Origin: Nitrospinales bacterium
Lineage (GTDB): Bacteria; Nitrospinota; Nitrospinia; Nitrospinales; JAJDAT01
DNA: 12,698 nucleotides
Assembly: GCA_046757665.1 (NCBI GenBank)
Contig: JBHHYO010000074.1
Coordinates: forward strand, 1-12,698
Direction: 5' to 3'
The translations under genes were made by a program, and so were the position numbers. The notes beneath the pieces are model-generated. The model made no database searches. It was not told the origin of the DNA and saw only the letters and a program-made list of their open reading frames with translations. Positions 1-11,152 of the stretch are shown one piece after another. Within the stretch, counting starts at the first letter, position 1, and every line of letters starts with the position of its first letter.

Positions 1-2012
1 GTTTTGATGCCGGTGGACAGCATGTCGATGCGGGTTTTGATCGGCATGGTCCAGGCATTAGTCACACCGGGAAAGTTAATGGCCGCATTCATCTCTTCAA
101 TCAGCTTCTTGATTGTCATTCCCGGGCGCCATTGTTCTTCCGGTTTGAGCATGATCGTGGTTTCCATCATGCTCAGGGGCGCCGGGTCGGTGGCGGTTTC
201 CGCCCGCCCGATCTTGCCGAACACGTGATGAACTTCCGGAAATTTTTTGATGATCTTGTCCGTCTGCTGAAGCAGTTCCTTGGCCTTGGTGATCGAGATG
301 CCGGGCAAGGTCGTCGGCATGTACAACAGGTCTCCCTCGTTGAGGGGAGGCATGAATTCCGAACCGATTTGTTTCAAGGGTATCATGCTCAGGGCAACCA
401 CGAAAATGGCGCCCAGGATCACAAGGGTTTTCATTTTTAAAGCCAGCCGAATGATAGGGTTGTAGATCAACCATAAAATCCAGTTGACGGGATTTTGCTT
501 TTCGGGAAGGATTCTGCCCCTGACGAAGTAGCCCATCATAACGGGAACAAGGGTCACCGCCAGAATGGCCGACGCCGCCATGGAGTAGGTTTTCGTAAAC
601 GCCAGAGGAGAGAACAAACGGCCCTCCTGGGCTTGCAGGGTCAAAACGGGCAAAAAGGATACGGTGATGATCAGCAGACTGAAAAAGATGGCCGGACCAA
701 CCGCCGCGGAAGCCTCGTAGATGATCTGCCAATGGTCCTTCTTGCCGCGGTCCTGCTCAAGATGCTTGTGCGCGCTTTCGATCATGACGATGGCGCCGAC
801 AATCATGGCGCCGATGGCGATGGCGATTCCGCCCAGGGACATGATGTTGGCGTTGAGCCCCTGGTAATACATGATGATGAACGCCATGAGAACGCCCATG
901 AGAACGGAGAAAATGGCGACCATCGCGGACCGCAAATGCAGGAGAAAGATGACGCAGATGGCCGCGACCATCAGGTTTTCCTCGATCAGTTTTCCTTTCA
1001 GGGTGTCGACCGCTCGCAGGATGAGGCTGGAACGGTCATAGACGGGGATGACCTCCACCCCTTCCGGAAGTCCGGCCTTCAACTCCGCCAGTTTTTGTTT
1101 GACGCCGTTGATGACTTTCAGGGCGTTTTCGCCGAAACGCATGATGACAATTCCACCCGCCACCTCTCCCTCGCCGTTAAGCTCGACCAGTCCGCGTCTC
1201 AACTCCGGCCCCAGTTGAACGTGCGCCACGTCGCGAATCAGGATGGGGGTTCCGCGGGCGTCCACCCCCACGGGAATCGTCTCGATGTCGCCGATATTTT
1301 TAATGTAGCCCAGTCCCCTGACCATGAACTCCATCTCGGACATCTCCAGAAGCCGCCCACCGACGTCGTTGTTGCTTCGCTTGATGGCCATGAAGATTTT
1401 ATGCAACGGGATGTTGTAGGCGATAAGCCGGTTGGGGTCCACCTCCACCTGGTATTGCTTGACGTAGCCGCCGATACTGGCAACTTCGGAGACACCGGAG
1501 ACGGTTTGCAGTTCATAGCGAAGATACCAGTCCTGGATGGAGCGCAATTCGGAGAGATCGTGTTTGCCGGTTCTGTCTACAATAGCGTATTCGAAAACCC
1601 ATCCGACTCCCGTGGCATCCGGCCCCAACGACGGGTTGACTTCCTTGGGCAGTCGTCCCGAAACAAAGTTCAAGTATTCCAGAACGCGGCTACGCGCCCA
1701 GTACATGTCCGTCCCGTCCTCGAATATGATGTAGACGAAGGAAAAGCCGAAGAAAGAATAACCGCGCACGACCTTGGCGAACGGCACCGACAACATGGCC
1801 GTGGTCAAGGGATAGGTGATCTGATCCTCAACGATTTGCGGCGCCTGCCCGGGGTATTTGGTGAAAATGATCACCTGCACGTCGCTGAGGTCGGGAATGG
1901 CGTCGAGCGGCATCCGTTGCAGGACGAAAATACCCCAGACAATGATGAAGCCGGTCCCCAGAAGAACAAGAAATCGATTTTTGAGAGATGCCGCAATGAT
2001 TTTTTTGAGCAT
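1..2012 (-). CDS. cusA: CusA/CzcA-family heavy-metal efflux RND permease, Cu(I)/Ag(I) type; N-terminal 670 codons, 3' end outside window
   Basis: Manually translated open frame from ATG at 2012: [16 protein letters not shown]...[37 protein letters not shown]...[11 protein letters not shown]...[13 protein letters not shown]...[22 protein letters not shown]...[11 protein letters not shown]...[17 protein letters not shown]. Frame is the same at both ends. Not in the ORF track because there is no stop codon in the window. Confidence 0.97.
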
Positions 2013-2017
2013 TGTTT

Positions 2018-2968
2018 TTAGTTAAGGGAACGATCTCGAATTCGAGAAAGATATTTTTGGGGTGATTGGTTAAACTCCGTGGCACAGGTTTGCGAACAAA
2101 AATAATAGATTCGATCCCGAAATTGCGCTTTCAAGGCGTGGCGGGTATCGTGCACCGGCATTCCACATACGGGATCATATGAAGAATTGCGATTGTCGTA
2201 TTGAATGAACGTTTGGAATGCTTTTTCAAAGGTGGGATCAAATTGAGTTCCCGCGGCCTGTGCTATGATTTCCAGAGCCCGTTGTTTGCTGAGTGCCTTT
2301 CGGTAGGCGCGGTCACAACTCATGGCATCATAGGCATCCACAAAACTTATTATTCTTGAGCCCAATGGAATCTCTTGAGCGTTAAGGCCGTCCGGGTACC
2401 CCGTACCATCGTATTTTTCATGATGATGACGGATGATTTTCACGATGTTTTCAAATCCCTTTAATGTTTTGAGGGCGTCGGCTCCATATACGGGATGTTT
2501 TTTAATCCAGTGAAATTCTTCTTCATTTAATTTGTCGGGTTTTTTTAAAATGGCGTCGGGTATGCCAATTTTCCCGATATCATGCAACTCCGCCGCCATG
2601 GAGATTTCTTCTATATCCTCCGAAGGCAATTGCAGATATTCGCTAAAACTTTGCGCTAAATCCCTAACACGCCTCGAATGTCCTTCCGTATAAGGGTCCT
2701 TTAGATCGATGAGGGAAACGAGCGCCAGTTTTATGCCCATCAGTGTTTCAATAGTATCCTGCTGAAAGCGCAGGATTTTTGAAACATCGCCTACCAGTAA
2801 ACCGCAAAAAATCATAACACTGACAAACATGCCCACCATGATTTCACTATGGTATTGCTCGTGGATTATACCTCCGACAAAAGAATCGATCAGAACAAGC
2901 AAGGCAACCATGCCTATTCCGATGATTTTCCACCCCATGCGTGTTTTTTTTAGGATCGAGGAGGCCAT
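2018..2968 (-). CDS. Membrane-anchored HD-GYP domain phosphodiesterase with C-terminal YHS/TRASH metal-binding domain
   Basis: Two N-terminal hydrophobic segments. HD-GYP motifs [55 protein letters not shown]-terminal DPVCGM...YYFCSQTC...F...PQKY (2051-2176). Alternative start ATG at 2938. Confidence 0.93.
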
Positions 2969-3047
2969 GATTTCCGTTATTTCAAAAGCTGTTCTCGGCT
3001 TTCCACTTTCGAGGACCGTTGCATAACCCGGGGCTTCGCCGCCGCGG

Positions 3048-3153
3048 TGTCATCGCGAGCCGCTACCCGCGGCGTGGCGATCCAGCCGGGCCACGCCCGG
3101 TGGGAAAGGTTCTTTCTGGATTGCTTCGTCGGCTGAGCCTTCTCGCAATGACA
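3048..3153. repeat. REP-like palindromic element resembling CGTC-tagged repeats (GTCATTGCGAG...CTCGCAATGAC type)
   Basis: Terminal inverted repeats TGTCATCGCGAG (3048-3059) and CTCGCAATGACA (3142-3153), 11/12 match. Inner arms GGCGTGGCGATCCAG (3071-3085) and CTGGATTGCTTCGTC (3116-3130). Internal hairpin CCGGGC-CAC-GCCCGG (3086-3100). Confidence 0.85.
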
Positions 3154-3178
3154 GTCAAACAAGTACACTTATACAAAG

Positions 3179-3194
3179 CTCCCACTTTGGGGAG
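3179..3194 (-). terminator. Short hairpin immediately after the cusB stop (weak terminator or processing-site candidate)
   Basis: Minus strand CTCCC-CAAAGT-GGGAG followed by CTTTGT. Stem is only 5 bp and the U tract is poor. Confidence 0.25.
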
Positions 3195-3199
3195 AATGT

Positions 3200-4954
3200 T
3201 TATTGTTTCATGCCTTCCATGTCCATGCCTTTCATGTCCATAGGCGCGGGCATTTTTTGTTTGCCCGTTTGCGGTAAAGCCTGGGATCCACCTGTTTTCC
3301 CTGTGTTTTTCGTGCTTTTTGGCTTGCTTGTTTTAAGCTTGGATTGTTGCATTTTGTTGAGAGCCTCGCGGAGGTTGCTTTCCGAGTCGATGAGGAAGTT
3401 GGAGGAGGTGACGACCTTTTCCCCGGCCTTAACTCCCTGGATCACCTGAACTTCATTATTCGCGTGACGGCCCAACACAACCTGCCGCGACTCAAATCCG
3501 CCGCTTTTATTCATGACGATCACGATATTTTTCTCTCCGGCATGGATAACCGCCACATCGGGAACGACAACGGTTTTCCGGGCGATGACTGACTTGAAAA
3601 TCAAATCGGCGTACATATCCGGTTTTAACTGCCAGTTTGGATTTCTAAACTCCGTTCTTACTTTGACGGTGCGGGTTTTCGGGTCCAAGACGGGGTCGAT
3701 AAAAGTAACCTTCCCCTTGAATTTCTTGCCCGGAAAATAGGAAAGTTGCATTTCCGTTTCCTGGCCCATTCGTATCCAGGGCAATTCATATTCATAAATC
3801 TCTCCCTGAACCCATATATTGGAAAGGTCGGCGATGGTATAAAGGCTCATTCCCGGTTTGATATACATTCCCTGCAACACGTGTTTCTTGATGACGAATC
3901 CGCGCACCGGCGAATGAATGTGCATGGTTTTTGTGATTTTCTGATTGCGAATCAACTCCTCGATCTGGTGCTCCGGAACATCAAACAACTCCAGTCGGCG
4001 GCGGGTGGACTCGAGAAGCGCCTTGGACCCCTGGGAAAGCTCGGTGAACGGATTGTCCTTAAGCGTCTGGTTGTACTTCATGGCGAGGAGCAGTTCTTCC
4101 TGTGTCGATACCAGTTCCGGGCTGTAAATTTCCGCCAGCAATTGGCCTTCCTCGACTTCCTGGCCCGTAAAATCGACATGCAGTTTCTCTACCCATCCCT
4201 CGTACTTGGTATGAACGTGGGTAACTTTTCTTTCGTCGTAAGTTAACGTTCCGATGGTCCGGATTTCCCGCTTGAGGGTTTTGACTTCTGCAATCTCCGT
4301 TTTGACTCCAATGTCTTGAACGATATTTGCCTGAATGCGGATACCGTCTCCGCCCCCCTCATCCTCGTAAACCGGGATCAAGTCCATCCCCATTGGGGAT
4401 TTCCCGGGTTTGTCGGAAATGTAACCGGCGGTCATCGGGGCTTTCCAATACTTGATTTTTCTTTGTTTTTTGGGAGGCGTTTTGTCCGGTTCGGCGTTCG
4501 CTTGCCCGGGTGGCTCTGGCGGCGGCAAGGGTTTTGGTTTTTGCGCTAATTGGGAGTCAATAACGTCCGTGATTTTCTGCGTTATGGGCCCGGATTTTTC
4601 GATAATCAATGAAGCAAATTTTTCCACATTCTTTGGGGTCTCTTGCAGGGAATCCGGGTTTGTGGAATAACCTAAAAGATAGACCAGGCCCATGGTCAGA
4701 AGGAATCCGGCAAACTTTAAAAACCTGGAAGATCGCCGAGGTCCCGCGGATTGGGATTTGGAATCGGCAGATTCCTTCATGGGAAAAATAATCTCTTCCT
4801 CGGAATCGGATTCGCCGGTATCGGACGGTCTCTCCTCGGAAAGCGGCCGTTTCAAGTTTTTGATTTCTTTCATATCGTCCTCACTTTTCCCCAAGGCGTA
4901 CTGCGCGGATTTTTCTCGAGGAGTTTTCGCAATCGTTTGTTTGAAACGTTTCAA
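3200..4954 (-). CDS. cusB: CusB-like periplasmic adaptor (membrane fusion protein) with long N-terminal extension and Met-rich C-terminal tail
   Basis: Metal-binding motif YWKAPM...KPGKSPMGMDLIPVY. MFP motifs GWVEKL, IYSPELVSTQEELL, IADLSNIWV, IDPVLDPKTRTVKVR, LKPDMYA, FLIDSESNLRE. Start uncertain: TTG at 4954 (TTGA overlap with the cusC stop) or ATG at 4873 preceded by GAGG. Confidence 0.95.
   Translation of the reverse strand: MKRFKQTIAKTPREKSAQYALGKSEDDMKEIKNLKRPLSEERPSDTGESDSEEEIIFPMKESADSKSQSAGPRRSSRFLKFAGFLLTMGLVYLLGYSTNPDSLQETPKNVEKFASLIIEKSGPITQKITDVIDSQLAQKPKPLPPPEPPGQANAEPDKTPPKKQRKIKYWKAPMTAGYISDKPGKSPMGMDLIPVYEDEGGGDGIRIQANIVQDIGVKTEIAEVKTLKREIRTIGTLTYDERKVTHVHTKYEGWVEKLHVDFTGQEVEEGQLLAEIYSPELVSTQEELLLAMKYNQTLKDNPFTELSQGSKALLESTRRRLELFDVPEHQIEELIRNQKITKTMHIHSPVRGFVIKKHVLQGMYIKPGMSLYTIADLSNIWVQGEIYEYELPWIRMGQETEMQLSYFPGKKFKGKVTFIDPVLDPKTRTVKVRTEFRNPNWQLKPDMYADLIFKSVIARKTVVVPDVAVIHAGEKNIVIVMNKSGGFESRQVVLGRHANNEVQVIQGVKAGEKVVTSSNFLIDSESNLREALNKMQQSKLKTSKPKSTKNTGKTGGSQALPQTGKQKMPAPMDMKGMDMEGMKQ
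3209..3241 (-). repeat. 15-bp tandem duplication encoding the Met-rich tail MDMKG-MDMEG-M
   Basis: CATGCCTTCCATGTC (3209-3223) and CATGCCTTTCATGTC (3224-3238), one mismatch, followed by CAT. Confidence 0.8.
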
Positions 4955-6231
4955 AATAATCTTTTACCTACGACATGTTCCAGCCGGGCAAGATTTTTTT
5001 CATAGTCAGTCAACTCCTTGTGGTACCTGATCTGCCATTTGAAAAGCGTGATCTCGTTGTCCAGCAGAGTTAAAAAATCCACCTTGTCCACGCCGTATCC
5101 GGCCAGGGCGGATTCCAGGGACTGCCGGGCCTGCGGAATAATTCCAGTCTTGATCAGCTTGAGCAGTTTGGTTCCCTTAACCTCCTCATCCAGGCTTTCC
5201 TTGATTTTCAGGAAAATCTCGTTTCGGGTTTTGTTGTAAGTTTCCTGAGCCATAATCACTTTACGATTCTCTTCAAGCACCTTGCGGCGTTGCTTGCTTT
5301 TCTGCCACAAGGGAATATTGATACCGACAAAAGCAGAGACGAAATCCGGATGGTCCAAGCCCCGCCTCAAGTTGCTTTGCCGTTGCCCGTATCGAAACCC
5401 CACGTTGAAGTCGGGGAAAAAATCCTTTTCGGCTAATCTTCCGGAAACTTTGAACCGCTCGATCACGGAACGGATTCCCTTCAATACCGGACGGCTTCCC
5501 TCGGCGGTTCTTTGCAGATTTTTGAGCGTATAATTGAACGGCGTTTTCGTGATTCCATGAGATATGGACAAAGGCGCTTGCGGCATACGGTTCATCAAGG
5601 TATTGAGTCGGGCCTTTTCGACATCTCTCCTTTTATCCAGCCGGACCAATTCGTCCATGATCTTGGACAACTCCACTTGAGCCTTTATGACATCCTGTTG
5701 AATTCCCTTGCCAACGGAATACTTGGTTTCCGCGATGGTGATGAATTGTTTCAGCAGGGATTTATTTTCCTTGGTGATTTCGATGGACGCCAAAATAAAA
5801 CAAAGCTCGTAAAATGAGACCTTGACCTCCTTGATGAGACTCAGCTTGAGGTCCTCGTAGCTTTCCTCGACAATTTTTACGTTTTTCTCGGCAATCTCCG
5901 TCCGCAGTCCCAGCTTGCCGGGGAAAGGGAATTTCTGTGACAACGTGATTTGTTTCTGCGTCATCGCCTGCGAGGAAAATGAAAAACTGTCGGTCGGCAA
6001 GTTCTTCAACTCAAACTTCAGCATGGGGTCGTCCAGGGAGCCTGCCTGAGAGGGAATCTCCTTGTAAGCCTTGATTTTTTCCCTGGCTTCCTTCAGTTCG
6101 GGATTATTTTCCAGCGCTTCGGTTATAAACCGGTTTAAATTTTCCTTGAATTTACGGGTTTGCTGACCCCAGACCAGGCCGGTATGGGCACAAAAAACCA
6201 GCAAAACAAGAATCGATACCCATCGTTTCAT
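4951..6231 (-). CDS. TolC-family outer membrane efflux protein (CusC role)
   Basis: Signal peptide, ALENNPEL, LSQKFPFPGKL, YSVGKGIQQDVIKAQVE, VGINIPLW, GYGVDKVDFLTLLD. GAGG upstream of ATG. Located directly upstream of the MFP and RND genes. Confidence 0.94.
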   Translation of the reverse strand: MKRWVSILVLLVFCAHTGLVWGQQTRKFKENLNRFITEALENNPELKEAREKIKAYKEIPSQAGSLDDPMLKFELKNLPTDSFSFSSQAMTQKQITLSQKFPFPGKLGLRTEIAEKNVKIVEESYEDLKLSLIKEVKVSFYELCFILASIEITKENKSLLKQFITIAETKYSVGKGIQQDVIKAQVELSKIMDELVRLDKRRDVEKARLNTLMNRMPQAPLSISHGITKTPFNYTLKNLQRTAEGSRPVLKGIRSVIERFKVSGRLAEKDFFPDFNVGFRYGQRQSNLRRGLDHPDFVSAFVGINIPLWQKSKQRRKVLEENRKVIMAQETYNKTRNEIFLKIKESLDEEVKGTKLLKLIKTGIIPQARQSLESALAGYGVDKVDFLTLLDNEITLFKWQIRYHKELTDYEKNLARLEHVVGKRLF

Positions 6232-6367: not shown

Positions 6368-6637
6368 TTATTGTCTGGGAGGATGGTAGACGGGATTTAA
6401 AAAGATGAAATCGAATTTCTCAAAAGCCACCGGAACGTTGCACACAGGAGGGAAAACAAGGTCCGGGTCCGAGAAATCAGCCGCGGCAAAAACCACGCAG
6501 GAATGGCAACTGACCTTCATCGGACAATCCGTGGGAGACATGTCGTGCGTCATGGCGATTGAACTGTTGACCATGAAAAGGCAAAACAGCCCAACCAATA
6601 TGGCCGCCGCAAGAGGATGTTTTCGCAACATTCGCAT
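6368..6637 (-). CDS. Small exported Cys-motif protein or leader peptide of the CutF/CruR (DUF2946)/CzcI-like class
   Basis: N-terminal signal-like hydrophobic segment, Met/His patch MTHDM, CxxC (CHSC, residues 44-47) and C-terminal YHPPRQ. First gene of a heavy-metal RND operon. Confidence 0.8.
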   Translation of the reverse strand: MRMLRKHPLAAAILVGLFCLFMVNSSIAMTHDMSPTDCPMKVSCHSCVVFAAADFSDPDLVFPPVCNVPVAFEKFDFIFLNPVYHPPRQ

Positions 6638-6813: not shown

Positions 6814-7602
6814 ATGGAACTGATTGAAGCAAAAGACGCCGCCTTGTCTTACCTGAAACCGGCCACGCGGGAAGTTTTGAAGTATTTTCGCTCGGACGTG
6901 ACCGTCGATGAAAAATCCGACGGTAGCCCGGTGACCATCGCCGACCGCAACGCCGAGGAAATCCTGCGAAAACGCATCAGCCGCGACTTCCCCGGTCACG
7001 GGATCATCGGCGAGGAATTCGGCAACGAGTCCGCCACCGCGGAGTGGGTATGGACCATAGACCCGATCGACGGAACGCTGTCATTCATTCACGACCTGCC
7101 TTTTTTCTCCATGTTGCTGGCCCTGTTGCATCGCGGCCGGCCGGTTATGGGAGTGCTTTCCCTGCCCGCCCTCGGCGAAACGGCCTGGGCCGTGAAGGGC
7201 CGGGGAACCCATTGCAACCGCGGGCGCGTCCGGGTCTCCCAATGCAACAGCTTGAAAAACGCCGTGGCGGCCACCGCCGACCGGTATTGCTTCAAGGAAA
7301 AAAAGTGCCTGCACCTGTATGACCGGATTTACCAACACACCGCCCTGGCGCGCACGTATCCCGACGCCTTTGGCCACTGGATGGCCATCCGCGGGGCCGT
7401 AGATATCATGGTGGACCCGTGGGCCTGTATCTGGGACTTCGCGCCGTGTAAAATCCTGGCGGAGGAAGCGGGAGGCCGTTTCGCCAATTTCACCGGCAAC
7501 AAGGGATCGATCACCGAGGGAACCGCCATCGTCGGCAATGCCGCGCTGGTGCGGCAAGTCAGAACGCTATACCTGAAAGGAAAGAACACCGCGCGCCGTT
7601 GA
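6814..7602 (+). CDS. hisN: Inositol monophosphatase family protein, probably histidinol-phosphate phosphatase (HisN-like)
   Basis: Motifs KSDGSPVTIADRNAE, IIGEEFG, WTIDPIDGTLSF, IWDFAP, EEAGG. Family is clear; substrate specificity is inferred. Confidence 0.8.
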   Translation: MELIEAKDAALSYLKPATREVLKYFRSDVTVDEKSDGSPVTIADRNAEEILRKRISRDFPGHGIIGEEFGNESATAEWVWTIDPIDGTLSFIHDLPFFSMLLALLHRGRPVMGVLSLPALGETAWAVKGRGTHCNRGRVRVSQCNSLKNAVAATADRYCFKEKKCLHLYDRIYQHTALARTYPDAFGHWMAIRGAVDIMVDPWACIWDFAPCKILAEEAGGRFANFTGNKGSITEGTAIVGNAALVRQVRTLYLKGKNTARR

Positions 7603-7607
7603 GGCGG

Positions 7608-7988
7608 TCAAAGTTTTTGCCGGCCGGCATAACCCGCGTCCAGATCGTGCCAGAAACGAACTTCCTCCTCGGGAATTTTCCAACAAAGAAAAACCTCCCG
7701 GCCGTTCAGGATCGCGGGAAAATCCACCAGACCCTCGGCGATTCCCTTGATAATGCAACCCTCATCCGACAAGTCGTTCATAGCCCGGTTGAGTTGCAGG
7801 GCGACCTGCAAATAAGCGGAGCCCTGCTCACTGCCTCCATTGAAGCGGGCATTTTCCCGCGCCTTCTCGACGTCGGGAAACTGGTTGGCCAACCGGGCCG
7901 CCAGGCTCTGAATACGGGGAACATCCTTGAGCAACCTGGGCACCAGGGAATTGGCTTCATTCACGGTAAAATGTTTTTTGAACGCCAT
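7608..7988 (-). CDS. DUF2203 family protein
   Basis: FTVNEANSLVP...IKGIAEGLVDFP...EVFLCWK..E....WH...AGYAGR matches the recalled DUF2203 pattern. ATG at 7988 preferred over the upstream start at 7997. Confidence 0.85.
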   Translation of the reverse strand: MAFKKHFTVNEANSLVPRLLKDVPRIQSLAARLANQFPDVEKARENARFNGGSEQGSAYLQVALQLNRAMNDLSDEGCIIKGIAEGLVDFPAILNGREVFLCWKIPEEEVRFWHDLDAGYAGRQKL

Positions 7989-8037
7989 AAGGCACAATGG
8001 GGGAAAAAGGTTGACCGGGCGAGCTTTTTCAATCCCG

Positions 8038-8066
8038 ATTATAATTTATCACAGCGGACCTGTCCA
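8038..8066 (-). promoter_or_regulatory. Sigma70-type promoter for the DUF2203 gene
   Basis: Minus strand TGGACA (8066-8061), 17-bp spacer, TATAAT (8043-8038). Confidence 0.65.
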
Positions 8067-8215
8067 ATTGATTAGCGGAAATTTTTCCGGCATCAATGAG
8101 CCTGTTTTATCATAAATTTTATCGGCGCCGGGAAGGGACGGGAAAACCGCCAACGGCCCGCGGGATAAGAAAATTCTGAAAATGCACCCTAAGCGGAAAT
8201 TCGGGCTTTTTTTAA

Positions 8216-8244: not shown

Positions 8245-8361
8245 TTGAACTATAAATTAAGAATACCCTGCGGCGGAACAGCGCGAATAAAACGCATCAA
8301 CCAGCCGATCGCTTAAATTTTCCTGAGTTTAACCATGTCTCAAAAAAACAAGGGGGGACAA

Positions 8362-8832
8362 ATGAAAAAACCATTAATCCTAGCCTCAGTTGTTGCATTT
8401 GTTGCCGCAATGTCCTTGGGCGTCGCGGTTTCTTTTGCGGACGAGTTGTTGCCGGGCGCTTATGCCCAGCAAGACCAGAGCGTCATGGGTGTCGGCAAAA
8501 CCATGGTTGAAATGGGTGCCGCCGACCGTGCCCTGACCAACGCCGTGAACCTGGCTTCCGGAGCCGGCAGGTCCAGAAACACTTCGTTTGGTGTCAACGT
8601 GGACTATCAGTTCGGGTCATCGCAGTCAGACCAGTCCTGGAAAGCCGCCAGAACCGTCGAGGAAGCGCAAGTGCGCGGACTGGTCCCCGGCGATTGCCAG
8701 GGCGACAACTCCACGGACGCTTACAGGAAGCAAATGAATCAAAGCCGGGATGGATACGTGCAAGAGAAGCTGATCCCCAACAACATCTGCGGGGACCACC
8801 ACCCGACCATAAAAATCGGGGCGACCAACTAA
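8362..8832 (+). CDS. Exported hypothetical protein
   Basis: Sec-type signal MKKPLILASVVAFVAAMSLGVAVSFA and ribosome-binding site AAGGGGG before the ATG at 8362 (ORF track starts at 8335). Has its own promoter and a downstream hairpin. No family recognised. Confidence 0.85.
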   Translation: MKKPLILASVVAFVAAMSLGVAVSFADELLPGAYAQQDQSVMGVGKTMVEMGAADRALTNAVNLASGAGRSRNTSFGVNVDYQFGSSQSDQSWKAARTVEEAQVRGLVPGDCQGDNSTDAYRKQMNQSRDGYVQEKLIPNNICGDHHPTIKIGATN

Positions 8833-8856
8833 GCTCATATTGGCGCATTTATCCCT

Positions 8857-8889
8857 TCCCGGACGAAAAGCAGTACCGCCCGTCCGGGA
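8857..8889 (+). terminator. Stem-loop downstream of the exported hypothetical protein
   Basis: TCCCGGACG (8857-8865) and CGTCCGGGA (8881-8889) form a perfect 9-bp stem with a 15-nt loop. No U tract, so it is not a classical intrinsic terminator. Confidence 0.4.
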
Positions 8890-8922
8890 CAATATCGATC
8901 AACATGGTAAAAAGCCGGTAGA

Positions 8923-9396
8923 ATGAAAATTCTATCGGCTTTTTCTTTACGCCCCTTCTCCCCAATCCCGCACTCCATGGTCCGGCGGATTCTCCTGTTA
9001 CTCTGCATCCTGCATCTCATGCAACCTGTCCCCTCCCTGCCTGCCGAAAAGATTTCCTTGAAACAGTATCCCACTCTCAGTATCCCGGTGACGAATCCGG
9101 TGGACCTTAGCCGACTGCCCCGGGACAAAATGTTCCAGGTGAAGGACGAACAATTCATCCTGCAATTTTTTTTCAACGAACGGGACATATTCGGATTTAT
9201 CATGAAACGCGACAAAAAACTCCCGTTATACCTCCGGTGGTGTTTTTTCCGTTCCTGCGAGGAAAGCCCGTTCGATTACACGGTCCGCATCGCGGCGCCC
9301 TACCAGCCGCCTTTTGTTAAGGGATTTTTTGTGGTCAACTTCCCGCCCGGAATTCAATACGACTTTCAAGGATTGTTGTTCTCCTCACCTCGTTAA
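8923..9396 (+). CDS. Hypothetical protein, probably exported (likely start ATG 8977)
   Basis: Fills the gap between neighbours. From M19, MVRRILLLLCILHLMQPVPSLPA resembles a signal peptide. Aromatic-rich body with WCFFRSCEES. No family recognised. Confidence 0.7.
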   Translation: MKILSAFSLRPFSPIPHSMVRRILLLLCILHLMQPVPSLPAEKISLKQYPTLSIPVTNPVDLSRLPRDKMFQVKDEQFILQFFFNERDIFGFIMKRDKKLPLYLRWCFFRSCEESPFDYTVRIAAPYQPPFVKGFFVVNFPPGIQYDFQGLLFSSPR

Positions 9397-9440
9397 AAAT
9401 GACGCAAGGAGAAGCCTTTGTCCCGTTTCCGGCTGGTCCT

Positions 9441-9449
9441 TGGTATAAT
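9441..9449 (+). promoter_or_regulatory. Extended -10 promoter for the DUF1566 gene
   Basis: TG-G-TATAAT at 9441-9449, about 45 bp upstream of the ATG at 9495. No well-spaced -35 seen. Confidence 0.55.
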
Positions 9450-9494
9450 TTGTTCAAGCGAATAAATTCCAAAACCACCATCCATGAGGTTGTT

Positions 9495-9929
9495 ATGACC
9501 ACAAACAGATTTGTCGATAACGGCAACGACACCATAACCGACTCGGACACGGGACTGACCTGGCTCAAACGGGATTCCCGGCAGATAACAAAAAAATGGC
9601 TCCACCTGGAAAAAGCCCGGGAGTTCGCGGAAGAATTAAACGCCGCCCGGTTCGGCGGTTTTGACGACTGGAGGGTGCCGAAACTGGAAGACGTTAAAAC
9701 CATTTTCGACAAAAAGTTCACCCTCCTGACCCACGGAAACGACGAGATTCATATTCCGCCGGTTTTCGAGGCCGGTTGCACCGACAGCACATGGACCGAC
9801 GAGGTGAATGGAGAACGGGCCATGGTGTACAGTCTCATCAAGGGAAGGTCGAGCTGGATCAACAAACTGGGGGAAGGCCCCTTTGCCGTTCGCCTGGTGC
9901 GGGGCACGGCAAAAGACAAGGGGATTTAA
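9495..9929 (+). CDS. DUF1566 (Lcl C-terminal-like) domain protein
   Basis: RFVDNGNDTITDSDTGLTW, LNAARFGGFDDWRVP, W(T) and VRLVR are typical DUF1566 motifs. GAGGT precedes the ATG at 9495. Stop overlaps the convergent symporter stop (TTAA, 9926-9929). Confidence 0.88.
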   Translation: MTTNRFVDNGNDTITDSDTGLTWLKRDSRQITKKWLHLEKAREFAEELNAARFGGFDDWRVPKLEDVKTIFDKKFTLLTHGNDEIHIPPVFEAGCTDSTWTDEVNGERAMVYSLIKGRSSWINKLGEGPFAVRLVRGTAKDKGI

Positions 9930-11152
9930 TGCTCCTCCACAAACTTTTCTTCCAGCCGGTCGATGATCGCCGCGCCGATGGAATCGCCCCAGACGTTGAC
10001 GGTTGTCCGGCACCGGTCCAGAAACCAGTCGATAGCCAGAAGCATCCCGATGCCTTCCAGCGGCAGTCCAACCGACTGGAGAACCATCACCAGGGTCACC
10101 AACCCGGCTTCGGGGATTCCGGCGGCGCCCACCGCGGCCAGCGTCGCGGTTAAAAAAATGACGGTCTGTTCCGCGAAGCCCAGGTGAATCTGAAACACCT
10201 GGGCAATGAACAAAGCCGCAACCGCCTCGTACATGGCGGTGCCGTCCATATTCACCGTGGCGCCCAGGGGGAGGACAAACAAAGACGCTTTCCGTGACAC
10301 CTTGTTGTTTTGCTCGGCGCACTCGATGGTGACCGGAAGCGTGGCCGAACTGCTGGCCGTGGAGAAAGCCGTGATCAAAGCCTCCCCGGCGTTTTTCAGG
10401 TAAACCACCGGGTTTCTGCGCGTAAAAACGACCAGCAAAACCGGCAACACAACGACCGCATGAACCAGGAGCCCGCTGACTACGGTCAAAACGTATTTGC
10501 CGATTTTCACCAGCTCCGCAAGAAACGCATCCCCGCCGCCGGTCGCGCCCAGCTTCGAGGCAATCAATCCGAAAATCCCAAGAGGCGCCAAATACATCAC
10601 CAGATGAACGATTTTCATCATGGCGGCATTGACGACATCGAAAAAATCAATGACCACCTTGCCCTTGGTCCCCAAAGTTGTCAGGACCCCTCCAAACAAC
10701 AGGGAAAAAACAATCAACGGAAGAATCTCCATTTCCACCATGGAACGGACAAGGTTCGGCGAGACAAACGTCTGCAAAATCGTGGTCAGGCCCACGGACT
10801 CTTTTCCGGAAACCTTTTCCGGCAGGTCCAGGGCTCCGGCTTCCATTCCCACTCCCGGCTGAATCAGGTTGACCAATAACAACCCGATCACTACCGAAAC
10901 GGCCGTGGTGAGCATGTAATAACCCAAAGTGATGACACCGGTTTTCCCCAGCTTGCGGATATCGCCCAACCCCGCGATGCCCACGATCATGGAAGAGACA
11001 ATCAGCGGCACCACGAGCATTTTCAAGGCATCGAGGAAAAGTTCTCCCATCCAGGCAACCGCCAGCATGGACTTCCCAAAGGTCCAGCCGCACACCCCGC
11101 CGCTCAGGATTCCGATGACAGTCAGGAAGAGGAGCCGGTTTTTCTTTTTCAT
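9926..11152 (-). CDS. Dicarboxylate/amino acid:cation symporter (DAACS/SDF family, GltP/GltPh-like)
   Basis: LKMLVVPLI, AFSTASSSATLP, VLPLGATVNMDGTA, VGAAGIPEAG, DWFLDRCRTTVNVWGD. The NMDGT motif is of the glutamate/aspartate transporter type. Confidence 0.96.
   Translation of the reverse strand: MKKKNRLLFLTVIGILSGGVCGWTFGKSMLAVAWMGELFLDALKMLVVPLIVSSMIVGIAGLGDIRKLGKTGVITLGYYMLTTAVSVVIGLLLVNLIQPGVGMEAGALDLPEKVSGKESVGLTTILQTFVSPNLVRSMVEMEILPLIVFSLLFGGVLTTLGTKGKVVIDFFDVVNAAMMKIVHLVMYLAPLGIFGLIASKLGATGGGDAFLAELVKIGKYVLTVVSGLLVHAVVVLPVLLVVFTRRNPVVYLKNAGEALITAFSTASSSATLPVTIECAEQNNKVSRKASLFVLPLGATVNMDGTAMYEAVAALFIAQVFQIHLGFAEQTVIFLTATLAAVGAAGIPEAGLVTLVMVLQSVGLPLEGIGMLLAIDWFLDRCRTTVNVWGDSIGAAIIDRLEEKFVEEH

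Follow-up and report, generated by a model that had tools for sequence, protein, structure and literature searches.

On the minus strand of a 12,698-bp contig from a Nitrospinales genome lies a gene for a protein, P0001, that combines two transmembrane (TM) helices, an HD-GYP domain and a C-terminal YHS domain. The contig (C74) was analyzed as a whole and is referred to below as the window; it belongs to a genome bin of 2.97 Mb in 160 contigs. The gene is an internal member of a cusCBA-type heavy-metal efflux operon of the resistance-nodulation-division (RND) class. The reading that we favor, with a probability of roughly 0.55, is that P0001 acts as a membrane-anchored phosphodiesterase of cyclic di-GMP (c-di-GMP) that would respond to copper or silver and be co-expressed with the CusCBA-type pump. 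A sequence-only reading of the same DNA had proposed a metal-gated phosphodiesterase, and its interpretation is supported: every element of it that can be examined in the sequence agrees with what we found, metal gating itself being a putative property.

Domain make-up of P0001

The gene and the parts of its product are as follows.

2018..2968, minus strand: gene for the 2TM/HD-GYP/YHS protein P0001, stop codon included (open reading frame (ORF), translation, orthologues)
2231..2722, minus strand: HD-GYP catalytic domain, Pfam HD_5 residues 83-246, with the last helix reaching to about residue 257 (alignment, fold)
2045..2176, minus strand: YHS/TRASH-type domain, predicted to bind metal, Pfam residues 265-308, with D265, C268, C291 and C295
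2876..2935, minus strand: TM helix 1, about residues 12-31, preceded by K7, K8 and R10 (hydropathy; helix 2-31 of the AlphaFold2 (AF2) model)
2699..2851, minus strand: TM helix 2 (about residues 40-62) and the connecting helix (63-90) into the HD-GYP domain (a single AF2 helix, 40-90; hydropathy)
2837..2851, minus strand: H40-x3-M44 at the predicted outer (periplasmic) end of TM helix 2 (alignment; 42 of 72 family members)

The ORF runs from an ATG to a TAA codon and specifies 316 amino acids. It is more than a chance reading frame, because at least about 63 other 90%-identity clusters carry HD_5 together with YHS (38-60% identity; a hand count among the best 120 matches in 5.8 billion proteins) and because full-length orthologues occur in 11 related genomes. 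P0001 matches the Pfam families HD_5 (3.1e-42, residues 83-246), HD (4.2e-23) and YHS (6.1e-11, residues 265-308, 42.6 bits against a cut-off of 30.3), and the YHS match was recovered in a scan of the genome as well. An AF2 model, built on a 34-sequence alignment, has a pLDDT of 85.6 and a pTM of 0.79. The HD and GYP motifs that the sequence-only reading had described as intact are indeed present, as LHDIGK (H129-D130) and HHExxDGxGYP (residues 182-192), and the YHS tail has the three cysteines attributed to it, in DPVCGM (C268) and FCSQTC (C291 and C295).

The catalytic domain

By its residues, the HD-GYP domain is an ordinary member of its family, predicted to fall in the binuclear subclass. 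In a 34-row alignment of the family, H97, H129, D130, K133, H158, H183, E184, G188, G190, Y191 and P192 are invariant in all 34 rows, as are D211, D214, R220, Y222 and R223. The metal ligands of PmGH, which we take to be H189, H221-D222, H250, H276-H277 and D305, align to H97, H129-D130, H158, H182-H183 and D211 of P0001; H182 is kept in 33 of the 34 rows and the remaining ligands are invariant. The RxY[K/R] motif reads R220-A-Y222-R223 (RAYR) in P0001, and RxYR is invariant throughout the alignment. According to the accessible part of the Galperin & Chou census preprint, from which the E185 and 4MCW numbering of PmGH is also taken, this motif is largely responsible for specificity toward c-di-GMP.

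The trinuclear subclass of these enzymes, which converts c-di-GMP to GMP, has a Glu or Asp in an N-terminal loop at the position of E185 in PmGH. The corresponding residue of P0001 is Y93, and this Tyr is invariant in the family. Since Tyr replaces E185, the sequence places P0001 in the binuclear subclass and outside the trinuclear one. Where Tyr stands here, hydrolysis ends at pGpG for the most part, with some exceptions, as stated in the same part of the preprint.

The best structural matches of the P0001 model in Foldseek were 4mcw (PmGH, 7e-12), 4r8z (PA4781, 1.4e-11) and 9rbz (DvhD, 1.5e-10), with a probability of 1.00 for each, and the DvhD match is a structure with bound c-di-GMP. By sequence, the best solved relatives are V-cGAP3 (2e-41), PmGH (1.1e-35) and PA4781 (1.2e-25), in that order. 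Further, c-di-GMP signalling exists in this organism, because the genome scan yielded 5 GGDEF, 6 HD_5 and 1 PilZ matches.

The YHS tail

Judged in the same way, the YHS domain is an ordinary member of its Pfam family. All 34 rows have the candidate ligands D265, C268, C291 and C295, which present the YHS ligand pattern [D/C]-x2-C...C-x3-C in the form D-x2-C...C-x3-C, which is the copper site proposed for the adenylyl cyclase of Mycobacterium phlei (M. phlei; PMC4626032, in the text available). Beside these ligands, P266, V267, G269 and M270 are invariant or nearly so; V267, M270, F290, S292, F299 and P303 are further invariant residues of the tail. The first and second cysteines are 22 residues apart in 50 of 69 members and 19-21 apart in the other 19. 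Between the last HD-GYP helix and the YHS domain there is a linker of only about 7-8 residues, and the distance from GxGYP to the Asp of the YHS site is 76-78 residues in 62 of the 69. This constant spacing fits a fixed packing of the YHS domain better than a loose tether. A search of the PDB with the YHS part gave weak matches only and no close solved relative, phenol hydroxylase (E 0.13) being an example.

The membrane anchor and a candidate second input

Mean Kyte-Doolittle hydropathy over 19 residues is 2.24 at residues 16-34 and 2.19 at residues 43-61. K7, K8 and R10 precede the first of these segments, K64 and R67 follow the second, and the 8-residue loop between the helices contains neither Lys nor Arg. 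By the positive-inside rule this distribution predicts that both termini, and with them the HD-GYP and YHS domains, lie in the cytoplasm. The sequence-only reading had reached this topology from the basic N-terminus and the two hydrophobic helices, and hydropathy, the AF2 helices at 2-31 and 40-90 and the placement of Lys and Arg concur with it.

Inspection of the alignment reveals a second regularity at the outer end of TM helix 2. Of the rows without a gap at these places, 24 of 30 have His at position 40 and 24 of 31 have Met at position 44. In a set of 72 sequences bearing the three family motifs, H-x3-M is found ahead of the catalytic domain in 42, and the interval from its His to the D of the DxYT motif is exactly 51 residues in 42 of 42. 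This spacing holds both in forms with two TM helices (His at about 40) and in forms with one (His at 3 or 4). In the AF2 model His40 caps the long helix 40-90, which runs from the outer face of the membrane to the HD-GYP domain. In the importer CcoA, copper uptake depends on an HxxxM motif located in a TM helix (PMC5829832, accessible text). The pattern suggests, conjecturally, that H-x3-M may provide a second metal input that faces the periplasm. Several members with two TM helices lack H-x3-M and have YHS, so that YHS is the universal feature of the family, which also includes a subfamily with one TM helix and a soluble one.

Taken further, this conjecture would make P0001 a copper sensor of two compartments. 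A dimeric H40-x3-M44 would read periplasmic Cu(I) or Ag(I) and signal down the rigid 51-residue helix, YHS would read cytoplasmic Cu(I), and the HD-GYP domain would integrate both signals and clear c-di-GMP locally at the pump. We put this forward tentatively and consider it rather unlikely. If it were true, P0001 would be without precedent, both as an HD-GYP enzyme that senses metal and as a second-messenger enzyme that is genetically part of an RND operon. No HD-GYP protein tied to an extracytoplasmic sensor has been characterized so far, according to the part of the Galperin & Chou census preprint that is available.

The operon in the window

The HD-GYP-YHS gene and its neighbors lie on one strand, in the order cusC-cusB-X-cusA, where X is the HD-GYP-YHS gene. 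The other features of the locus are these.

3..2012, minus strand: cusA/czcA-type heavy-metal RND permease, N-terminal 670 amino acids, truncated at the contig end (TIGR00914, 831 bits against 701)
3010..3170, no strand assigned: GC-rich dispersed repeat of about 155 bp, resembling a miniature inverted-repeat transposable element (MITE) or a repetitive extragenic palindrome (REP), inserted downstream of cusB and ahead of the HD-GYP-YHS gene
3200..4954, minus strand: cusB-type periplasmic adaptor with HMBD and a Met-rich C-terminal tail (TIGR01730, HlyD_D23, HMBD)
4951..6231, minus strand: outer-membrane factor (OMF), cusC/TolC-like (OEP, 137.8 against 22)
6368..6637, minus strand: small Cys-rich ORF with a hydrophobic, signal-peptide-like N-terminus (similar ORFs at loci L037 and L041)

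The start of cusA lies 5 bp past the stop codon of the HD-GYP-YHS gene. The adaptor exceeds the cut-off of TIGR01730 (140.9 versus 94.9); with the CusB-specific model NF007303 it scores 183, below the cut-off of 390. In its HMBD match (CusB residues 169-195) Met stands where Cys is usual in this domain (APMTAGY...SPMGMD). We also observed that its C-terminal tail (residues 560-584) is Met-rich, MPAPMDMKGMDMEGMKQ, and that this tail differs between operons with and without the inserted gene.

The small ORF is probably the first gene of the operon. Relatives of it stand upstream of the OMF gene at 8832-9176 (minus strand) of L037 and 4253-4576 (plus strand) of L041, making three cus loci in total. 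The three ORFs specify 89-114 amino acids and have a hydrophobic, signal-peptide-like start, a motif rich in Cys and Met (DCPMKVSCHSC is one case) and the ending YHPP[R/K], and neither the ORF at 6368-6637 nor its relatives matched any family in a Pfam search. The product may bind metal in the periplasm as a partner of the pump.

Here cusB and the HD-GYP-YHS gene are 231 bp apart (2969-3199), compared with 0-152 bp in the orthologous loci, and this gap contains the dispersed repeat. Among 121 first-look candidates for this repeat, 40 were scored; the genome has another 41 matches, of which 39 cover most of the element at 83-92% identity. The predicted fold of the gap is not unusual (z = -1.23). 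Between 1900 and 6900, a promoter scan found 3 promoter-like sites against 4.6 expected; terminator-like sites numbered 15 where 8.0 were expected, with no convincing one within the operon.

The 3' part of the window's cusA is probably found at the end of contig C68 (locus L253; 8197-9000, minus strand), where a fragment is 76% identical to the C-terminal part of an orthologue. The join of C74 to C68, with about 100 codons missing between them, is a likely but unproven continuation. On C68 the fragment is followed by an FGE-sulfatase-family gene (7195-8091, minus strand) and no further copper genes. Elsewhere in the window, on the plus strand, three consecutive ORFs with no Pfam match (7599-8075, 8335-8832 and 8923-9396) are followed by one with an Lcl_C domain (9399-9929), the four being flanked by an inositol-monophosphatase gene and a dicarboxylate symporter gene.

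Distribution of the family and its genomic setting

Matches that extend to residue 307 or beyond were found in 12 of 120 genomes of the phylum, the window's own included, and all 12 belong to the window's order (102 genomes). In the 18 genomes of other families of the same phylum, there was no stop-free match that extends into the YHS part. Those few relatives with HD_5 and YHS that carry a name are proteins of metagenome-assembled genomes (MAGs) labelled Nitrospinae, Nitrospinota, Nitrospinales or Nitrospirales, and automatic annotation already lists both domains on such proteins. The phylum of a MAG labelled 'Nitrospirae' was sampled in 401 genomes, with 5 candidates scored per genome; it gave 7 matches at E <= 1e-52, none of which passes residue 255, and so no YHS form. 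A search of representative proteins was dominated by tandem HD-GYP proteins, with all three family motifs in 8 of the best 150. Genome contigs and metagenome contigs were scanned with patterns of HD-GYP motifs, and ordinary HD-GYP genes dominated the best 80 loci of each. By residues matched, no family member was found among the 80 from genome contigs. A candidate at L084, which matches to residue 313, was rejected when its translation proved to be a REC-HD-GYP protein without YHS. Among the 80 from metagenome contigs, L130 was the sole family member.

The neighborhoods of the 11 other orthologues were compared over up to 17 kb around each. In 8 of the 11 the order OMF-cusB-X-cusA is kept. In two (L044 and L046) the gene lies directly upstream of a multicopper oxidase gene, with a MerR-family regulator adjoining it in L044. 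Thus a cusCBA-type operon or a multicopper oxidase is a neighbor in 10 of the 11. Two of the islands also encode P-type ATPases with N-terminal YHS and HMBD (L037, 9503-11827, plus strand; L039, 12147-14507, plus strand). In L038 a multicopper oxidase gene (12378-14459, plus strand) comes after cusA, with TPR and FAD_binding_6 genes behind it; L046 has this set downstream of its HD-GYP-YHS gene. Because of these neighboring multicopper oxidases and YHS/HMBD ATPases, copper rather than another metal is the probable substrate of the efflux operon. Beside the cus island of L043 there are ArdC-like anti-restriction/metallopeptidase, helix-turn-helix (HTH) and Gp49-like genes (9065-11030), which hints that this island is mobile.

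The gene as an accessory cassette of the operon

A search for CusA in the window's order gave 46 places in 39 of the 102 genomes. The 30 best of these cusA loci include 9 with the HD-GYP-YHS gene between cusB and cusA and 21 with cusB directly beside cusA. This pattern marks the gene as an accessory cassette. On a tree of CusA the presence or absence of the gene requires 6 changes, and at least 4 such gains or losses are required by branches with good support; presence shows no clear clustering on the tree, as 49 of 500 shuffles of the label needed as few changes. Three pairs of genomes, each from a single genus, differ in this way. Within flanks that are 85-89% identical there is a clean replacement of 1068-1128 bp in one genome by 44-176 bp in the other, the longer stretch consisting of the gene and the variable cusB tail and ending in each case exactly at the start of cusA. 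These natural pairs of near-identical operons, with and without the gene, are ready-made controls.

The HD-GYP-YHS protein has evolved faster than the pump (48-54% identity versus 75-84% for CusA), and its tree follows genus membership. The metagenome contig L130 (1.85 kb) encodes a cusB of 88% identity followed by an HD-GYP-YHS copy of 77% identity (1368-1839), which has no residues ~125-279 and in which the frame is changed. It is either a decaying gene or an artefact of assembly.

Proposed mechanism and alternative readings

We propose the following sequence of events. Co-transcription with cusC, cusB and cusA would cause the enzyme to appear together with the pump, and its two TM helices would anchor it at the inner membrane, leaving the catalytic and YHS domains on the cytoplasmic side. 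The Asp and three Cys of the YHS domain would bind cytoplasmic Cu(I) or Ag(I), and, as this domain is joined to the last HD-GYP helix by a short linker of fixed length, metal binding could alter the rate of hydrolysis. The direction of the change is likely to be activation, by analogy with the YHS adenylyl cyclase of M. phlei. c-di-GMP would then be cut mainly to pGpG, its concentration would fall, and behavior under c-di-GMP control would shift during metal stress. The analysis shows the domains, the intact catalytic and ligand residues, the topology, the conserved operon position and the c-di-GMP machinery of the genome; that P0001 is an active enzyme, its substrate, its binding of metal, the sign of its regulation and its effect on the cell are inferred.

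Several observations weigh against this proposal. The gene is dispensable for the pump, as 21 of the 30 orthologous cusA loci do without it, and one orthologue (L047, 1 of the 11) has no recognizable copper gene nearby. The sequencing runs that match the locus are two DNA runs from one study, labelled hydrothermal vent metagenome, one of which may be its source, and none is of RNA. The YHS/TRASH fold of L24e binds Zn or Cd structurally, and a YHS domain of toluene-4-hydroxylase contains no bound metal (both from the accessible part of PMC4626032), so that the Cys site of P0001 could be structural. The closest solved relative by sequence, V-cGAP3 of V. cholerae, is specific for cyclic GMP-AMP (cGAMP). 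Finally, the KPG motif, which is the family consensus, reads K143-P144-D145 in P0001 alone; its Lys and Gly bind through main-chain carbonyls, according to the portion of the Galperin & Chou census preprint available.

In a first alternative, P0001 would be a constitutive c-di-GMP phosphodiesterase with a purely transcriptional link to copper, the YHS domain being a structural Zn/Cys ribbon or a module for dimerization or docking. The 5-bp gap to cusA would by itself couple the level of the enzyme to induction of the pump, and the L24e and toluene-4-hydroxylase domains provide precedents for structural or absent metal. However, the Asp and three Cys, together with P266, V267, G269 and M270, have changed little or not at all while the remainder of the protein has evolved fast, the M. 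phlei cyclase demonstrates that a YHS domain can serve as a copper switch (PMC4626032, in the text accessible), and in the same genomic islands YHS domains sit on copper-type P-ATPases. We consider this alternative unlikely, although it is the most probable of the three.

The position of the gene, exactly between those of the adaptor and the permease in 9 of 12 genomes, raises another alternative, in which P0001 is mainly an accessory subunit of the pump beside CusA. Its YHS domain, and perhaps HxxxM, would hand over metal or sense the load, and through its HD-GYP domain efflux would be influenced by c-di-GMP, or that molecule would be degraded only locally. The membrane anchor is in keeping with such a role, as is HxxxM in a TM helix, which is a copper-handling motif in the CcoA importer (PMC5829832, accessible part). 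Yet most orthologous cus operons (21 of 30) lack the gene, two orthologues adjoin a multicopper oxidase with no cusA alongside and one stands alone. All the catalytic residues are retained as well, which argues for turnover rather than mere binding. We consider a subunit role quite improbable.

Least probable of all, and in our judgment very unlikely, is a substrate other than c-di-GMP, either 3'3'-cGAMP or pGpG, to which the resemblance to V-cGAP3 and the KPD variant would point, since RxYR is intact and invariant while shifts toward cGAMP accompany RxxQ or RxxN (Galperin & Chou census preprint, available part), and since the genome has 5 GGDEF matches, no search having been made for a cGAMP synthase.

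Comparison with known systems

Among HD-GYP phosphodiesterases of the RpfG family (PmGH, 4mcw; PA4781, 4r8z; DvhD, 9rbz), the catalytic domain, the fold, the ligands and the HHExxDGxGYP and RxY[K/R] motifs are shared with P0001. In contrast to these enzymes, the accessory domain of P0001 is C-terminal and is a YHS domain, and its gene lies in a metal-efflux operon; unlike PmGH, it has Tyr at the position of E185, as in the binuclear subclass. HD-GYP is typically C-terminal to its sensors according to the accessible text of the Galperin & Chou census preprint, which accords with the statement of the sequence-only reading that inputs to HD-GYP are usually N-terminal. The words YHS, copper and zinc do not occur in the main text of that preprint, whose supplements may list the architecture. 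The sequence-only reading did not recognize HD-GYP with YHS as a characterized architecture, and in full-text literature searches HD-GYP combined with YHS or TRASH returned no relevant paper; in the literature on c-di-GMP, copper and cusCBA, no such protein is described, as judged by titles and the beginnings of abstracts. What is unusual, then, is the combination of HD-GYP with YHS, the C-terminal placement of the presumed sensor and the location of the gene within an RND operon for metal efflux. Little is known about the inputs of HD-GYP phosphodiesterases, and this family, small and confined to uncultured bacteria, presents a compact case, with about 250 soluble residues and an obvious candidate ligand. 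The position of the gene ties heavy-metal efflux directly to c-di-GMP signalling and suggests a link between copper stress and this messenger.

The operon itself resembles E. coli CusCFBA, whose genes stand in the order of that name. In both, an OMF, an adaptor and an RND permease are encoded together, and the CusA/CzcA family is matched here above its curated cut-off. In the loci described here, unlike in the E. coli operon, a gene for a cytoplasm-facing signalling enzyme separates cusB from cusA, a small Cys-rich ORF stands upstream, and no cusF-like gene was recognized.

In archaeal regulators of the CopR/CopT type (HTH with a C-terminal TRASH domain; for CopR, the accessible part of PMC7830388) TRASH is the presumed copper input, as YHS may be in P0001. 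The same holds for the N-terminal YHS/TRASH domain of copper P-type ATPases, and ATPases with YHS and HMBD share islands with the HD-GYP-YHS gene. The output of these proteins is transcription or transport, whereas that of P0001 would be turnover of a second messenger. CcoA (MXXXM and HXXXM in TM helices 7 and 8; PMC5829832, accessible text) shares with P0001 an HxxxM in a TM helix. It is, however, an unrelated transporter of the major facilitator superfamily, and the motif of P0001 is at the outer end of a single signalling helix, where its role is conjectural.

The closest functional precedent for P0001 is the class IIIc adenylyl cyclase of M. phlei, which is rendered copper-activated by a YHS domain attached at its C-terminus through an 8-residue linker and for which an Asp and three Cys are the proposed metal ligands (PMC4626032, available part). 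Both the cyclase and, by prediction, P0001 act on a nucleotide second messenger, and both carry YHS at the C-terminus behind a short linker (8-11 residues in such cyclases, about 7-8 in P0001), with the Asp and three Cys. They differ in that the cyclase has another catalytic domain and makes cAMP, while P0001 is predicted to break c-di-GMP; the cyclase is also soluble and has no HxxxM, and the accessible text of PMC4626032 reports no efflux-operon context for it. If metal gating of P0001 is true, it would show how bacteria of metal-rich habitats couple metal stress to decisions of lifestyle, and the YHS copper switch, so far that of one cyclase, would be present in another class of messenger enzyme as well.

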